From Acidimicrobiia bacterium (lineage in GTDB: Bacteria; Actinomycetota; Acidimicrobiia; Spongiisociales; UBA5794), in assembly GCA_030066875.1 (NCBI GenBank), contig JASJAS010000042.1:1-60447 (forward strand): a DNA stretch of 60,447 nucleotides, in the 5' to 3' direction. Shown piece after piece: positions 44,672 through 49,480 of the stretch. Below the pieces are notes generated by a model that worked only from the letters and a program-made list of their open reading frames with translations, did not search any database and had not been told where the DNA came from. A program made the position numbers and the translations under genes. The first letter of the stretch is position 1, and each line of letters starts with the position of its first letter.

Positions 44672-46078
44672 CTATTGAAGCGTTTCCGCCAGGGCGTTGA
44701 TCCCATCGACGAAGCACTCGATCGGTGCCTCCACCAGCCCGGCGCCGACCATTCCGGTGCCGGGCACTTTCCCGGCGACCCCGGTGTTGATCTGAGGGAG
44801 GACTCCGGTACGCACCACTCGGGCTGCATCTATGCCGACCGGGGTTCCGCGGAACTCCAGCATCGGGATCTGGTAGGCGGGGTGCTCCTCGAGGGTGATC
44901 TCGTACATTGCCAAGGTGCGCCGCACGGCACCGGCCGCGGTGCCACCGACGAATCCGACGATCGCCGGGGCGGCTGCCATGGCGAAGCCGCCGAGGCCGA
45001 CCGTTTCCGTGATGGTCGAATCGCCGATGTCCGGGCTGGCATCTTCTTCGGTGAAGGATCCGAGATAGAGCCCGTCGACCGGTGGAGCCGGGGCGGTAAA
45101 CCAAGCATCTCCAGTGCCCGATAGCCGGATCCCGAAGTCGGTGCCGTTGCGGGCCATCACCGTTACCAGACTCGAAGCCGGCACCCCCGCAGCCGCATCC
45201 GATCCGAGCTTGCCGGCAGCCATCACCAGGTTGAGCATGAAGTGGTCGTTACCGTCGATGAACTTGAAGACATCGAGCCGTTGATCGGTAGGGGCGTCGG
45301 CCCCATCGACCAGGGCGCCGCCTATTTCGCGGAGGAACAGCGATGTCACCGCTCGGTTGCGATTGTGGCCGTCGTCCCCCATCTGGAGCGCTTGGGCAAT
45401 CAGTGCCTGCAGGTCGATCGGACCGCGGCTGCGCAGTGCCGAGCCCAACACCGGGCCGAGTACCCGGTCTATCCATTGCAACCGCTCGATGACTTCGGGG
45501 GCGAAGGCGCCGTAGCGAAGCACCTTGCCGAGACCCTCGTTGAGGGTGGAGTAGGACACGCCCTCGCCGGCTCCGTCTTCAATTACTGCCACGGGCATCG
45601 AAGGCGAGGTCACTCCTGCCATGGGTCCGACTGCGCCATGATGATGGCACGGTGACAACTCGACCTCACCGCGGGTCGCCTTCAGTGCAGCGTCTTCTGG
45701 GTCCGTGGCGAGACCCTCGTACAGCATCGCTCCGATGATGGCGCCACGCATTGGGCCGCTGGCTCGTTCCCACTCGATTGGCGGGCCGGCATGGAAGAAG
45801 GTGCGGTCGCTCATACCGGGAAAGACATCTCGGGCAACTCCGACATCGACGAGGTGAGGCCGGACTGCGAGCAGGCGTTGGATGGCGGTGTTGTTGGCGT
45901 CGACCATCCGACCATCGGCCGTCAACCGGGCCAATGCCGCGGCCGTATCCGGATGGGGTGGACGCCAGTCGGCGCGAGCAACGGCCGCTCCCTGCTGCTC
46001 GATGGAATCGGCCAGCATGTCGGTACCTGCCGCCGCGACCACCGGCTCATTGTCGAGAAGATCGTTCAAGTGGGTCAT
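44672..46078 (-). CDS. DUF1116 protein (YlbE/AllG-like)
   Basis: HAGPP, PCHHHGAVGPMAG..SPSM, NEGLGKVLRYGA, MGDD.HNRN, MARNG, D.GDS.ITE and P.INTG.A. Confidence 0.88.
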   Translation of the reverse strand: MTHLNDLLDNEPVVAAAGTDMLADSIEQQGAAVARADWRPPHPDTAAALARLTADGRMVDANNTAIQRLLAVRPHLVDVGVARDVFPGMSDRTFFHAGPPIEWERASGPMRGAIIGAMLYEGLATDPEDAALKATRGEVELSPCHHHGAVGPMAGVTSPSMPVAVIEDGAGEGVSYSTLNEGLGKVLRYGAFAPEVIERLQWIDRVLGPVLGSALRSRGPIDLQALIAQALQMGDDGHNRNRAVTSLFLREIGGALVDGADAPTDQRLDVFKFIDGNDHFMLNLVMAAGKLGSDAAAGVPASSLVTVMARNGTDFGIRLSGTGDAWFTAPAPPVDGLYLGSFTEEDASPDIGDSTITETVGLGGFAMAAAPAIVGFVGGTAAGAVRRTLAMYEITLEEHPAYQIPMLEFRGTPVGIDAARVVRTGVLPQINTGVAGKVPGTGMVGAGLVEAPIECFVDGINALAETLQ

Positions 46079-47502
46079 GAGTCCCTCCCCGCGGTTGCCA
46101 GCCGGGCGGCTGCTGCGGCCGCCGCAGCATTGGAGAGCCAGACCGACGCCCCAGCTTGATGCAACGCCGCAGCTTGCACATCGCGTTTCTGGGGGTCCCC
46201 CCTCGTGCCACATAGCGAAACCACCACAGCCAATCCCTTCCTGATCGCGTGTTCGATGGCGGGTGTCAGTTCCGCAGCGGGGTCCGGATTGGCGCCGTAG
46301 CCGAGGACGACATCCATCAAGATGATCCCAGCGGAGGTGTCGGCGGCGGTTGCTTCGAGCCTATCGATGCGGACCGTCTGGTCAATCATGGGGTGTGCCC
46401 GGCCTTGGGTGTACTCGTCATCGCCGTAGTCGATGAACGCATGGCCCGGGTCGTTCTCGGTCGTGCCGATATCACCGACGATCGGCATGGCGACGAAGCG
46501 CGCTTCGTCCCGCAGTGTTCCCCCGGAGAACAAGCCGCGCACCGTCCCGGGTCTATGGTCGGTCTGATCCACGGTCCACGCGGCATAGTCCGGTACCGGT
46601 CTGCCCAGCTCGGCAAGGACCGCACCGGCCCCGGCTTCGAGCGTGTCTTCACCCATGAACGTGATCACAACGGGCTTGCCGCACTCCGCCGCGGCCGCCC
46701 GCACCCGGTCAGCCACGGCAGCTGCCGGAGGTTTCGAGATGACGGAGATCACCTCGACGGACGGATCGGCGTCGAGTGCTTCGAGCGCCTGCAGAGTTGC
46801 CGCAGCTCCGATCTCTTCCGACAAATCGTGGCTGCCGGTACCGAGAGCGTGCTTGACCCCGACCCCGGCGTCATCGAGCAGGCAGCACATCTGCTGGATT
46901 CCCGTTCCCGAGGCCCCCACCATCCCAACCGGGCCCGGCAGCACGGCGTTGGCAAAACCCAACCCAAGGCCGTTGACGATGGCCGTCCCGCAATCGGGGC
47001 CCATGACCAGAAGTCCACGGTCTACCCCGTAGCGCTTCAGAACCTGTTCTTGGGCTACAGGCACGTTGTCGCTGAAGATCATCACGTGATAACCGCGCTC
47101 GAGCGCTTCCATGGCCTCGACGAAGGCGTGCTCGCCCGGGACGGAAAGCAGGACGATGTTGGCACCAGCGACTGCAGCGGCCGAACCAGCCGTCTTCGGG
47201 TCGGGAGCTTCGAGCCCACCGGAAGCTACAGCCTTGTGGGCTAGTGCTTCTTCGAGCACCCGACCAGCTGCGGCGATGACATCCTCGCTCTCAGCACGCA
47301 CCGCCAATACGAGATCGTTCGGCCCTGCCGCAACTGATGTGAGGTCGAATCCCATGTCCCCAAGCAGGCTCAGATTGAGCTCGGTCGCCATTGCCACCAG
47401 TGCGTCGTCGACACCTGCCACCTCCTGGAGCGCCTTGCTGGCCTGCATGAGCCGCACCGAGTCGTGGTAGCGGCCGGGAAAGAGCTCAACCCGAGAGATC
47501 AT
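46075..47502 (-). CDS. fdrA: FdrA/AllF family protein (acyl-CoA synthetase alpha-subunit-like)
   Basis: YHDSV.LM, SVPG, FSDNV, MGPDCGT, GASGTG.Q, SKPP, FSGGTL, YT.GRAHPMID and DVVLGYG...DP. Confidence 0.9.
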   Translation of the reverse strand: MISRVELFPGRYHDSVRLMQASKALQEVAGVDDALVAMATELNLSLLGDMGFDLTSVAAGPNDLVLAVRAESEDVIAAAGRVLEEALAHKAVASGGLEAPDPKTAGSAAAVAGANIVLLSVPGEHAFVEAMEALERGYHVMIFSDNVPVAQEQVLKRYGVDRGLLVMGPDCGTAIVNGLGLGFANAVLPGPVGMVGASGTGIQQMCCLLDDAGVGVKHALGTGSHDLSEEIGAAATLQALEALDADPSVEVISVISKPPAAAVADRVRAAAAECGKPVVITFMGEDTLEAGAGAVLAELGRPVPDYAAWTVDQTDHRPGTVRGLFSGGTLRDEARFVAMPIVGDIGTTENDPGHAFIDYGDDEYTQGRAHPMIDQTVRIDRLEATAADTSAGIILMDVVLGYGANPDPAAELTPAIEHAIRKGLAVVVSLCGTRGDPQKRDVQAAALHQAGASVWLSNAAAAAAAARLATAGRDS

Positions 47503-47516
47503 CTGTTTGTCTCCGA

Positions 47517-48380: not shown

Positions 48381-48382
48381 CC

Positions 48383-49480
48383 CTACCCGACGTCGACGAT
48401 CGCGGCTACGGGGCCGCCGCCACTGGGACCTTGATGCAAGGCCGCCACCGAGACAAACACCGCGGCGTCGTTGACGGCAGCACCGACTACGCCGCCGACC
48501 GCACCCTTGATGTGCCGGTGATGGTGGACGTCGGAATCGTCGAGTGACACCTGGCGCCGCCCGCGAAGACGCGAGGTCGGATCCGCTTCGCACTTGACGA
48601 ACACGTTGACGAGCTTGTCGCCTAGATCCTGGTACCGGGCTCGCTCGGGAAGGTCGAGGCCGGCGTTGCGGATCGCCCGATACACGCCTTCCTGATCGAG
48701 GGCGTCGTTCATCACGTCGTGGCCGATGCGATAGCGTCCACCGGCCCCGGGAGCGTTGCCCACAACCACGGTTTGCGCTTGGTCGAGTTCGACGCCCGAC
48801 GAGCACGACGCCACCGACGAGAAGAGGGTGAGGTCGTGGCCGATCTGCTCCGCGGTCGGCATCCCGATCTCGCCCAGGGCAACGGCGATCCCCAAGGCGG
48901 ATGTGCCGTTGGAGACGTTCATGGACTCCAGTGGATCCTCTGTGTAGACCGTGTGGCCGCGCGCCTTGGCGTCGTTGATCGTTTCCATGACCAGCAGCGG
49001 GGTCTTCGTTTGGACGTAGTGAACGTCGGCGGGATCCTCGATCCCGGCCTCGGCCATGGCCCGGCGCACCCCCTCGGCAACCTTCTCGACCATGGCAGGC
49101 CGGCCGATGTCTTCGGGAAGGATCACATCGCTCATCGCATAGCCGACCGCAAGACGCGGTTCACTCGACGCCGGCCCGTCGTCCTCGACCTTGGCGAACA
49201 CTGTGGCGTGCGGGCACAGGATGCCGTCCGTGCCGCCGGACCACACCATGGGGATCTCTTTGACCTCTTCGAAGGGTCGGGTGCCCTTGTCCATCAGCAC
49301 CTTGCGAAACGCTTGGTCGGCCAGGATCCGGGTGAAGTCGTTGACCCCGCCGTTGCCCTCGGTCTTGCCGACAACGGCTACGACGCCGTCGGCATCGAAC
49401 ACGCCATCATCAATCAGCTTTGCCAGCCCCGACGCGTCACTAACACTCTCGAGAACGACCTTCCGTACCTCTATGGCCAT
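48383..49480 (-). CDS. bar: Barbiturase (AtzD/cyclic amide hydrolase family, Toblerone fold)
   Basis: [46 protein letters not shown] and [15 protein letters not shown] and SVxxxHQ are barbiturase-type, not cyanuric acid hydrolase-type (SRG, SGGxEHQ). Confidence 0.85.

Follow-up and report, generated by a model that had tools for sequence, protein, structure and literature searches.

The window, by which is meant the whole 60,447-nucleotide stretch of DNA that was analysed, contains a minus-strand operon of four genes, which runs from bar (49480..48383) through AllH/DUF2877 and AllF/FdrA to AllG/DUF1116, ending at 44672. These genes, the gene that follows them and the divergent neighbour are as follows.

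48383..49480, minus strand: bar, barbiturase, a ring-opening amidohydrolase of the AtzD/Bar family, 365 aa (PF09663, 480.5 bits)
47517..48380, minus strand: AllH-like (DUF2877) subunit, about 287 aa if GTG 48380 is the start (PF11392 AllH, 71.9 bits)
46075..47502, minus strand: AllF/FdrA-like subunit, 475 aa from ATG 47502 (PF00549, 97.6 bits; PF02629, 32.0 bits)
44672..46078, minus strand: AllG-like (DUF1116) subunit, 468 aa (PF06545, 302 bits)
43792..44667, minus strand: phosphotransferase of the APH(6)/hydroxyurea-kinase family, 291 aa, the fifth gene (PF04655, 113.8 bits)
49640..50431, plus strand: dimethylargininase-like protein (pentein superfamily), divergent neighbour (NF045660, 226.5 bits, cut-off of 340 not reached)

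The tight packing of bar, DUF2877, fdrA and DUF1116 described in the original prediction is confirmed at these coordinates, with gaps of 2 nt and 15 nt and an overlap of 4 nt. Read from the sequence, the bar stop codon (48385-48383) is followed after 2 nt by an in-frame GTG (48380), the putative start of AllH. The AllH stop (47519-47517) lies 15 nt before the AllF ATG (47502), which is preceded by GGAGA; an alternative AllF start, GTG 47520, overlaps the AllH stop. AllF and AllG share 4 nt (ATGA at 46078-46075). The AllH, AllF and AllG genes are translationally coupled to bar. The APH(6)-family gene begins 4 nt past the AllG stop and is possibly co-transcribed; it scores 114.5 bits against NF012171, far under the cut-off of 325, and only 5 of 80 related loci (L006, L007, L009, L017 and L026) have a homologue downstream of Bar. 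Four of the 80 (L003, L006, L007 and L021) have the dimethylargininase-like gene upstream of Bar.

Bar scores above the cut-off of the NCBIfam cyanuric acid amidohydrolase model. Its alignment with PDB 5hwe, named 'Barbiturase', gives 527.5 bits, compared with 305.3 bits or less for cyanuric acid hydrolases. Three Ser-Lys pairs are present, as are all five residues (N191, H321, K325, V345 and A346) of the barbiturase signature taken from Peat et al. (2013; PMC3758960). The signature positions are invariant or near-invariant across the clade (93 of 93 members), and the AtzD-like outgroups L088, L089 and L100 carry Arg, Thr, Arg, Gly and Gly at them. The assignment of the first gene as a barbiturase therefore stands, and a cyanuric acid hydrolase is unlikely because of the Bar-type signature residues and the closeness to the solved barbiturase. 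From its orthology to the characterised enzyme, Bar would open the barbiturate ring to give ureidomalonate.

Sequence comparison identifies the next three proteins as true homologues of E. coli AllFGH, with identities of 39% for AllF, 45% for AllG and 31% for AllH (over 121 residues). The PF11392 match in the AllH-like protein covers its C-terminal 110 residues. AllF contains a CoA-binding domain (PF02629) and a CoA-ligase domain (PF00549), aligns with FdrA of PDB 3dmy at 233.9 bits and scores 396.5 bits against the FdrA model NF004760, below the cut-off of 433. It keeps the GRAHPMID motif, as had been noted originally; the aligned site of E. coli AllF reads GRPHPMID. At its C-terminus the protein is about 70 residues shorter than E. 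coli AllF; the N-terminal 50-55 residues of AllG resemble the C-terminus of E. coli AllF in a weak match. Residues 58-467 of AllG align with PDB 3clq at 375.3 bits. According to PMC11326118, purified E. coli AllFGH interconverts oxamate plus carbamoyl phosphate and oxalurate plus phosphate, and the oxamate carbamoyltransferase activity that the original prediction took as established has thus been demonstrated with purified protein.

A dehydrogenase, a permease and three further cluster genes, which did not feature in the original prediction, are located at 10527-18013 of the same window. In relatives the genes that match this set directly follow AllG, with the FAD-binding subunit gene immediately 3' of it.

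17129..18013, minus strand: FAD-binding subunit, xanthine-dehydrogenase family, 73% identical to L005:14870-15754, which has PF00941 and PF03450
16651..17118, start approximate, minus strand: [2Fe-2S] subunit of the same enzyme, 82% identical to L008:15775-16245, which has PF01799 and PF00111
14273..16831, start approximate, minus strand: molybdopterin subunit of the same enzyme, 86% identical to L005:16052-18622, which has PF02738, PF20256 and PF01315
13489..14247, minus strand: conserved 252-aa protein, probable GNAT (acyl-CoA acyltransferase) fold
12321..13496, minus strand: thiolase-like protein, 391 aa, 90% identical to L005:19381-20556, which has PF22691 and PF00108
11974..12348, minus strand: DUF35/OB-fold partner of the thiolase-like protein, 124 aa, 83% identical to L005:20529-20903, which has PF01796
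10527..11810, minus strand: NCS2 nucleobase permease, closest to uracil permease (PF00860, 296.9 bits)

The best NCBIfam match of the molybdopterin subunit is XdhA at 516 bits, and since this is below the cut-off of 780 the subunit is not a recognised xanthine dehydrogenase; the trio is a candidate uracil/thymine dehydrogenase. The 252-aa protein has no Pfam or NCBIfam match, and AlphaFold models it with low confidence (mean pLDDT 56.9). All 50 of its listed VIA-align matches bear titles of acetyltransferases or of GNAT-type proteins solved with CoA or acetyl-CoA (Z 8.7-10.5), and Foldseek and the Atlas cluster name concur, so that the predicted structure probably has a GNAT fold. The thiolase-like protein reaches 385.3 bits against NF004720 (cut-off 420). 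The permease scores 342.4 bits against TIGR00801, above its cut-off, and 340.7 bits against the uracil permease model NF007995 (cut-off of 477 not reached), compared with 226.7 bits for the xanthine permease pbuX.

The linkage of Bar to AllFGH is far beyond chance and recurs in most related loci. The comparison covered 80 loci whose Bar relatives are 72-96% identical, some of them from Haliangium-labelled MAGs, and counts were limited to those with enough downstream flank: AllH follows Bar in 57 of 72 loci with at least 1.5 kb downstream, AllF in 61 of 65 with at least 3 kb, AllG in 53 of 56 with at least 4.5 kb, and the Mo subunit of the dehydrogenase in 36 of 47 whose flank is 9 kb or longer. 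Some loci (L037, L047, L050 and L078) have no AllH between Bar and AllF. Of the 43 loci with sufficient flank, 24 have GNAT-like, thiolase-like and DUF35 genes after the dehydrogenase; this window has them too, and the thiolase and GNAT genes are absent from Nitriliruptoria-type clusters. Between the two main lineages the Mo subunits are only 27-31% identical, so that their dehydrogenase trios may not be orthologous. PucR-type regulators flank the cluster in 11 loci. In a phylum sample of 401 genomes, 21 have PF09663 and 52 have PF06545; the two occur together in 18, and thus in 18 of the 21 AtzD/Bar carriers. In an AllG tree that included 55 of 94 rows, the 33 rows from genomes with the Bar signature (33/33) form one clade (SH-aLRT 99), which contains the AllG of this window and has two Haliangium-labelled rows nested within it; none of the 22 other rows, E. 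coli included, falls inside.

Carbamate kinase would be the expected partner of such a complex if it forms carbamoyl phosphate. In 13 of 14 fetched genomes from outside the Acidimicrobiia its gene adjoins AllH or Bar, for example at L087:6110-7132 (arcC, 337.7 bits; PRK12352, 296.9 bits, above the cut-off of 266). In this window and most Acidimicrobiia loci it lies outside the cluster, and is inside in 6 of 37 loci with full flank. The original prediction had proposed that the genome be searched for a carbamate kinase and a malonamidase. The former was found on contig C95 (C95:3678-4607, 381.1 bits, cut-off 358.25); as it is on another contig, where its neighbours are an OTC-like gene and a PLP-enzyme gene, it is linked to the pathway only by availability. 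The cluster has no malonamidase-type gene, and five amidase-signature genes lie elsewhere in the genome. The window has no homologues of E. coli AllA, AllB, AllC, AllD, AllE or Gcl, in agreement with the earlier remark that allantoin genes are absent from it. Neither AllA, AllC, AllD or AllE homologues, nor a source of oxalurate, nor urease alpha was found in the window's own genome, although this is a MAG that is 81% complete and genes not found may be unassembled. Related loci likewise have no AllA, AllC, AllD or AllE, and a single AllB-like match (L097). Of the 18 genomes that carry both PF09663 and PF06545, only 3 have urease alpha, and no urea carboxylase above cut-off was found in five single-contig carriers.

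We consider it fairly probable that the cluster serves oxidative pyrimidine catabolism, with phosphorolysis of ureidomalonate yielding carbamoyl phosphate and malonamate. Uracil or thymine would be taken up through the NCS2 permease and hydroxylated by the Mo dehydrogenase at 14.3-18.0 kb to barbiturate or 5-methylbarbiturate, and Bar would convert barbiturate to ureidomalonate. The AllH-AllF-AllG complex, as a paralogue of the E. coli oxamate carbamoyltransferase, would then cleave the N-acylurea bond with phosphate, so that ureidomalonate and phosphate would give carbamoyl phosphate and malonamate just as oxalurate and phosphate give carbamoyl phosphate and oxamate. Carbamate kinase, encoded in the cluster in most other lineages, would use carbamoyl phosphate and ADP to form ATP, NH3 and CO2, and therefore one ATP would be gained per ring and no urea released. 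In this lineage the GNAT-like, thiolase-like and DUF35 genes may have a part in what becomes of malonamate. The original prediction of a ureidomalonate carbamoyltransferase is supported, as every computational test that was run agrees with it; its substrate and products are assigned by analogy and gene context. The CoA-binding and CoA-ligase-type domains of FdrA, together with the GNAT-like and thiolase-like neighbours, suggest CoA chemistry beyond this simple model.

Such chemistry is taken further if the FdrA-type subunit is CoA-dependent and converts ureidomalonate to malonyl-CoA (or malonyl phosphate) and urea, after which the GNAT-fold protein and the thiolase/DUF35 pair would make acetyl-CoA or acetoacetyl-CoA in Acidimicrobiia. 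The GNAT fold is that of malonyl-CoA decarboxylases, and both the AllF domains and the 24 of 43 loci with GNAT-like, thiolase-like and DUF35 genes would fit. This scheme is nonetheless unlikely: in other lineages the conserved neighbour is carbamate kinase, Nitriliruptoria-type clusters have no thiolase or GNAT genes, and the urea would be wasted, given how rarely urease alpha (3/18) and urea carboxylase (0/5) are found. Moreover, E. coli AllFGH is a carbamoyltransferase for which the available text of PMC11326118 mentions no CoA requirement. The complex could instead act on another N-carbamoyl compound downstream of Bar, for example acetylurea (decarboxylated ureidomalonate) or, if Bar is broader, a carboxybiuret- or biuret-like compound. 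In one genome (L089) a gene with the cyanuric acid hydrolase signature is linked to AllF/AllG; in a sister clade of AllG the linked genes are HyuAB-type hydantoinases and there is no Bar; and in nitrifiers allFGHK adjoins triuret/biuret genes (PMC12625717). However, both the uracil-type permease and the signature residues of Bar speak for barbiturate, the lineages share no conserved decarboxylase, and ureidomalonate is described in PMC3758960 as a stable product, which leaves this option unlikely too.

That the genes encode an ordinary oxamate carbamoyltransferase for purine-derived oxalurate, in a mixed nucleobase island where the adjacency of bar is a regulatory coincidence, is quite improbable. 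Homology to AllFGH, the PucR-type regulators, named for purine catabolism, and the membership of the dehydrogenase in the xanthine dehydrogenase family would all suit it, but the complex is translationally coupled to bar, its AllG belongs to a clade apart from that of E. coli that matches the presence of a Bar-signature gene exactly, the permease is nearer to uracil than to xanthine permeases, and AllA, AllC, AllD and AllE are lacking from the genome, as from related loci, where the AllB-like match is the one exception. It is very improbable that the three genes are the long-sought hydrolytic ureidomalonase, forming urea and malonate without phosphorolysis. They occupy the operon position expected for the third step, and no ureidomalonase gene is known to have been identified; yet the enzyme to which they are homologous is a transferase that depends on phosphate, the cluster is linked to carbamate kinase and most carriers have no urease.

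If phosphorolysis of ureidomalonate is correct, the cluster represents an undescribed route of uracil and thymine breakdown in which the urea group of the ring is saved as carbamoyl phosphate, with a possible yield of ATP. A literature search found no published account of such a pathway. Among the closest known systems is the arrangement in comammox Nitrospira and ammonia-oxidising archaea, in which AllFGH and carbamate kinase likewise stand, without upstream allantoin genes, beside the pathway of another carbamoyl-rich compound; allFGHK adjoins triuret/biuret genes there and is read by the authors as serving oxalurate degradation (PMC12625717). According to the same source no AtzD/Bar gene was found there, and both organisms and neighbours differ. 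Cyanuric acid pathways (AtzD/TrzD with AtzEG-AtzH-AtzF or BiuH) share the Toblerone fold of the ring opener (PF09663) and an N-carbamoyl product, whereas the signature residues in the window are those of Bar and not AtzD, and the cluster has no biuret or allophanate hydrolase neighbours.

E. coli AllF-AllG-AllH with AllK (Kim and Kim, 2024; PMC11326118) comprises the same three subunit families, FdrA type, DUF1116 and DUF2877. Both sets form an operon, with carbamate kinase adjacent in relatives of the window's cluster, both have the HPMID-containing AllF motif, and the proposed chemistry is alike, in that phosphate cleaves an N-acylurea into carbamoyl phosphate and an amide. They differ in gene order (H-F-G after bar, F-G-H-K in E. 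coli), in the apparent placement of the AllF C-terminal piece on AllG, in the separate AllG clade and the sub-cut-off FdrA score, and in the proposed substrate, which is one carbon longer than oxalurate. The companions of the genes in the window are barbiturase, a Mo dehydrogenase and a uracil-type permease; those in E. coli are allantoin genes.

No gene is known to have been assigned to either the first or the last step of the Rhodococcus pathway. The oxidative pyrimidine pathway described for Rhodococcus erythropolis comprises uracil/thymine dehydrogenase, barbiturase and ureidomalonase (Soong et al., 2001; 2002, cited in PMC3758960 and PMC4051656), and in its classical form ends with a hydrolase that yields urea and malonate (Soong et al., 2001, cited in PMC3758960). 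A barbiturase-type Bar and the intermediates as far as ureidomalonate would be common to both, and the Mo-flavin-iron-sulfur dehydrogenase is a plausible first enzyme in the window's cluster. The last step is hydrolytic in Rhodococcus, as these accounts have it, whereas here it would be phosphorolytic, with carbamoyl phosphate and malonamate as the products.

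The predicted operon lies on contig C120 of a metagenome-assembled genome (MAG) of 3.16 Mb that is 81% complete. The genes of the region are:

49640..50431, divergent from bar and ~160 bp from it: dimethylargininase-like gene
49480..48383, minus strand: Bar, predicted barbiturase of 365 aa; full-length match to PF09663 (480.5 bits, model positions 1–358 of 358)
48380..47517, minus strand: AllH/DUF2877-like; PF11392, 71.9 bits
47502..46075, minus strand: AllF/FdrA-like; PF00549 and PF02629
46078..44672, minus strand: AllG/DUF1116-like; PF06545, 302 bits
44667..43792, minus strand: phosphotransferase gene of the APH(6)/hydroxyurea-kinase family; PF04655, far under the APH(6) cut-offs

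The bar, DUF2877, fdrA and DUF1116 genes are as tightly packed as the original prediction had proposed. Read from the sequence, Bar and AllH are separated by 2 nt, AllH and AllF by a 15-nt gap with a GGAGA Shine–Dalgarno sequence, and AllF and AllG overlap in an ATGA; the fifth gene follows AllG after 4 nt. The GRAHPMID motif claimed for FdrA is present in AllF, where the E. coli protein has GRPHPMID, and the reported lack of allantoin genes holds for homologues of allB, allC, allD and allE, none of which was found in the window. A promoter and terminator scan of 43500–49800 gave no promoter-like sites and two terminator-like sites, both on the plus strand and not above shuffled sequences. Among loci fetched from related genomes (L-numbers), a homologue of the PF04655 phosphotransferase lies downstream of Bar in only five (L006, L007, L009, L017 and L026); in L026 it directly follows AllH, and AllF and AllG are missing. 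The dimethylargininase-like neighbour is also present in four close relatives (L003, L006, L007 and L021), and the encoded enzyme would form a ureido compound, for example citrulline.

Barbiturases and cyanuric acid hydrolases share the PF09663 family, and Bar also matches TIGR02714 with 504.1 bits (cut-off 153.1). Of 97 aligned family members, 93 share at least 68% identity with the window Bar and are here taken as its clade. The three Ser–Lys pairs (K39/S81, K159/S227 and K296/S344) and the domain A arginine R51, the roles of which are taken from PMC4051656, are the same in all 93 clade members. The residues that distinguish barbiturase are given by Peat et al. (2013; PMC3758960), in AtzD numbering, as Asn195, His321, Lys325, Val345 and Ser/Ala346, the corresponding AtzD residues being Arg, Thr, Arg, Gly and Gly. 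The window Bar has N191, H321, K325, V345 and A346 and so carries the barbiturase pattern. All 93 clade members have Asn, His, Lys and Val at the first four places and Ala, Gly or Ser at the last, and the AtzD pattern (R, T, R, G, G) is found in three of the four distant members (L089, L100 and L088). Bar scores 527.5 bits against PDB entry 5hwe, deposited as ‘Barbiturase’ and presumably from R. erythropolis, compared with 305.3 (6bum), 304.5 (5t13), 304 (6dhj), 246 (4bvq) and 238.7 bits (4nq3) for five cyanuric acid hydrolases and 196.3 bits for 5hy0, from a third clade. On this sequence evidence the window protein is concluded to be a barbiturase-type enzyme.

Bar also scores 461.7 bits with NF052395, the NCBIfam equivalog for cyanuric acid amidohydrolase, which is above the cut-off of 360, and automatic annotation would therefore name it a cyanuric acid hydrolase. 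Despite this score, that reading is rejected on the closeness to 5hwe and the signature residues. Many near-identical metagenome proteins (among P0004–P0118) are named ‘cyanuric acid amidohydrolase’ at source and few ‘barbiturase’. As proteins of the barbiturase clade pass the NF052395 cut-off and carry that name, surveys of cyanuric acid hydrolase may be inflated, and triazine-degradation surveys may be counting pyrimidine catabolism. The module is abundant in metagenomes: a search of environmental proteins for Bar homologues scored 8000 candidates, all of them significant, and the matches listed in the Bar protein search are only near-identical environmental proteins (88–96% identity). DNA of the window itself was found in four DNA sequencing runs of one study, labelled marine sediment metagenome; the same search of sequencing runs found no RNA runs containing it.

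The association of Bar with AllFGH was followed through a scan with one genome per species, which gave 406 relatives. The best 80 of the 406 loci were kept (72–96% identity) and their neighbours scored by tblastn with the window proteins. Downstream of Bar, AllH is found in 57 of 72 loci with at least 1.5 kb of downstream DNA, AllF in 61 of 65 with at least 3 kb and AllG in 53 of 56 with at least 4.5 kb. AllF directly follows Bar, with no AllH between, in L037, L047, L050 and L078. Three loci are without AllG despite enough flank (L026, L041 and L065), of which L065 represents a longer-spacing type of the cluster and L041 is a lone bar amid signalling genes. An alternative hydrolase was sought in L041 and L054, which have Bar without AllFGH; both are surrounded by signalling and envelope genes, and nothing catabolic lies nearby. 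Among the locus labels are Acidimicrobiia, Nitriliruptoria, Euzebyaceae, Egibacteraceae and Haliangium. Across 401 genomes sampled evenly from the phylum, with tallies that include the unpublished genomes G268, G239, G174 and G018, PF09663 is present in 21, PF06545 in 52 and both in 18, and the three genomes with PF09663 alone hold distant family members (38–43% identity). Judged by gene order, the Bar–AllFGH linkage is not due to chance.

A different arrangement is found in L089 (G086:C6:100001-120000). At 3511-9862 of this locus a member with the AtzD signature (NF052395, 517.4 bits) is followed 2.3 kb downstream by AllF- and AllG-like genes, with a gene for a DcuC-like transporter in the interval; carbamate kinase is absent from the 20 kb fetched. 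This hints that the same enzyme family may also handle carboxybiuret.

Purified AllF–AllG–AllH of E. coli was shown by Kim & Kim (2024; PMC11326118) to interconvert oxamate plus carbamoyl phosphate and oxalurate plus phosphate. All three subunit families are present in the window as consecutive genes (PF11392; PF00549 with PF02629; PF06545), with identities to the E. coli proteins of 39% for AllF, 45% for AllG and 31% for AllH (the C-terminal 121 residues), and by analogy contact between the three subunits is expected. AllF scores 396.5 bits with the FdrA model NF004760, under the cut-off of 433, and covers model positions 9–493 of 555. Compared with E. coli, the window AllF is without ~70 C-terminal residues and the window AllG has ~55 extra N-terminal residues. 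The profile of this extension matches E. coli AllF 509–550 and then AllG 4–23, a weak match of 8.4 bits from a two-sequence search. It places ~45 residues from the C-terminus of E. coli AllF at the N-terminus of the window AllG and suggests that the AllF/AllG gene boundary has moved within a conserved segment. Genes for oxalurate supply (allB, allC, allD and allE) were sought in the related loci, and none was found except one AllB-like match in L097.

A quick IQ-TREE phylogeny of AllG was built from 55 of the 94 available rows, comprising every row of the window, E. coli and the phylum sample (36 in all) plus 19 of the 58 related-locus rows. All 33 rows from genomes with the Bar signature form one clade (SH-aLRT 99), which includes the window and excludes E. 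coli; none of the 22 rows outside it comes from such a genome, and E. coli AllG is paired with L110 in a different region of the tree. Two Haliangium-labelled rows nest within the Acidimicrobiia part of the Bar clade. This pattern, the Haliangium nesting included, indicates that the AllG clade tracks the partner enzyme and not taxonomy. The sister group of the Bar-linked clade (support 95) consists of four rows, all from genomes that lack an AtzD/Bar gene. In the sister-clade loci L104, L106 and L107 (genomes G291, G358 and G265) AllF–AllG follows a Mo dehydrogenase trio and HyuA/HyuB, members of the ATP-dependent hydantoinase/oxoprolinase family. The ring may be opened there by HyuAB instead, which would supply an AllFG-type enzyme.

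In the 14 other-lineage genomes taken from the phylum sample, the cluster consists of a PucR-type regulator, Bar, an NCS2 permease, carbamate kinase, AllH, AllF, AllG and the dehydrogenase trio, often together with HyuA/HyuB. Carbamate kinase adjoins AllH or Bar in 13 of the 14; in G097 and G165 it is beside Bar, with AllHFG 28–44 kb away. No carbamate kinase is found in the operon in this window. The genome search suggested in the original prediction finds one on another contig, C95 (381.1 bits, above the arcC cut-off). Its neighbours there (G000:C95:956-5563, L124) are a gene with the ornithine/aspartate-carbamoyltransferase fold, one for a PLP-dependent enzyme and a 485-aa ORF, a layout that resembles the ygeW–ygeX–yqeA region of E. 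coli.

In relatives of the L005 type AllG is followed directly by genes for the FAD, [2Fe–2S] and molybdopterin subunits of an enzyme of the xanthine dehydrogenase family, and then by genes for a conserved protein of 252 aa, a thiolase-like protein and a DUF35 protein. Orthologues of all six, missed by the original prediction, are present in the same window (73–90% identity), followed by a permease gene:

18013..11974: orthologues of the six post-AllG genes, of which the GNAT-fold, thiolase-like and DUF35 genes occupy 11974-14247
11810..10527, after the DUF35 gene: NCS2 permease; 340.7 bits as uracil permease vs 226.7 bits as xanthine permease

The trio orthologues contain the domains PF02738/PF20256/PF01315, PF00941/PF03450 and PF01799/PF00111, and their architecture matches that of uracil/thymine dehydrogenase (EC 1.17.99.4), a three-subunit Mo/FAD/[2Fe–2S] hydroxylase. 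We know of no reference sequence for this enzyme, and the match is therefore one of architecture. The GNAT-fold, thiolase-like and DUF35 genes follow the dehydrogenase in 24 of 43 related loci. The structure model of the 252-aa protein is of low confidence (pLDDT 56.9); all 50 listed matches in its fold search are titled acetyltransferases or are GNAT-type proteins solved with CoA or acetyl-CoA (Z 8.7–10.5), so that it is probably GNAT-like, the fold matches being consistent but middling. The thiolase/DUF35 pairing recalls the PhlB/PhlC parts of phloroglucinol acyltransferase. Given this likeness, and the resemblance of barbiturate to phloroglucinol, the three proteins may act at ring C5 or on malonamate.

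Between the two halves of the cluster lie, in this genome, ~26 kb of genes unrelated to it, among them hydrogenase, heterodisulfide-reductase-like, sugar and envelope genes. The stretch at 18206-26198 begins with genes for the large and small subunits of a [NiFe]-hydrogenase, followed by a 1157-aa flavoprotein with a dihydropyrimidine-dehydrogenase-type 4Fe–4S domain and then by CCG-domain and ferredoxin genes. As a set they resemble an electron-transfer module of the heterodisulfide-reductase-like kind.

Ureidomalonate is oxalurate extended by one methylene group. By analogy with oxalurate, the AllH–AllF–AllG complex would phosphorolyse ureidomalonate to carbamoyl phosphate and malonamate, and carbamate kinase would then make ATP from the carbamoyl phosphate. 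We consider phosphorolysis of ureidomalonate the probable reaction, with moderate confidence. It is supported by the cluster-linked carbamate kinase, by a clade separate from that of E. coli, by the finding of no oxalurate-supplying gene (homologues of AllA, AllC, AllD and AllE) in the 81%-complete genome, and by the lack of an evident urea route. Urease alpha was not found in that genome, and it is present in three of the 18 genomes with both PF09663 and PF06545, the other carriers being 93–100% complete and one of them unpublished; in five single-contig carrier genomes no urea carboxylase scored above cut-off.

The same lines of evidence bear on the alternatives. A plain oxalurate enzyme would fit the shared subunit families and is very unlikely, the separate clade and the missing oxalurate supply both pointing away from it. 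A plain hydrolase would agree with the Rhodococcus pathway, which reportedly has urea and malonate as its end products (cited in PMC3758960) and is counted as a point against phosphorolysis or open for it; set beside the sparse urease and the carbamate kinase of the other lineages, such a hydrolase is highly improbable. Two further points of this kind are that carbamate kinase is unlinked in the lineage of the window and that no malonamidase is found in the cluster. Action of the complex on another carbamoyl substrate is quite unlikely. Phosphorolysis also leaves without a role the CoA-type domains of AllF and the GNAT-like/thiolase/DUF35 trio. They would find a place in a CoA-dependent variant of the reaction, which the linkage of carbamate kinase in other lineages does not favour and which is unlikely.

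Phosphorolysis of ureidomalonate can be placed in a wider joint reading, held tentatively and at somewhat less than even chances, in which AllFGH enzymes are general ‘ureide phosphorylases’ and the oxidative pyrimidine pathway is a common ATP-yielding route. Each AllFGH clade would take an N-carbamoyl amide from a different ring-opening enzyme: barbiturase for pyrimidines, cyanuric acid hydrolase for triazines (L089), HyuAB-type hydantoinases (the sister clade) and triuret/biuret enzymes (nitrifiers). In each clade the terminal carbamoyl group would be converted to carbamoyl phosphate and then yield ATP via carbamate kinase. The pyrimidine route, thought to be rare and urea-releasing, would be common in sediment Acidimicrobiia, Nitriliruptoria and some Myxococcota. 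The cluster would encode both of its gene-less steps, uracil dehydrogenation and ureidomalonate cleavage; to our knowledge no sequence has so far been assigned to uracil/thymine dehydrogenase or to ureidomalonate cleavage. If true, genes would be assigned to these two steps, the textbook urea-releasing end would be replaced by energy-conserving substrate-level phosphorylation, and the recently identified three-subunit carbamoyltransferase would have at least one further substrate class.

A full-text literature search turned up no paper in which barbiturase or ureidomalonate is connected with FdrA/AllFGH or carbamate kinase. The closest case is that of nitrifiers, where allFGHK stands beside triuret and biuret genes and is read, in PMC12625717, as serving oxalurate degradation. 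In E. coli the operon is completed by allK, the carbamate kinase gene, according to PMC11326118; by comparison, carbamate kinase is unlinked in the window and linked in 13 of the 14 other-lineage genomes. Relative to these systems, an enzyme family that is already known would serve a new pathway, and the substrate predicted for it is new as well.
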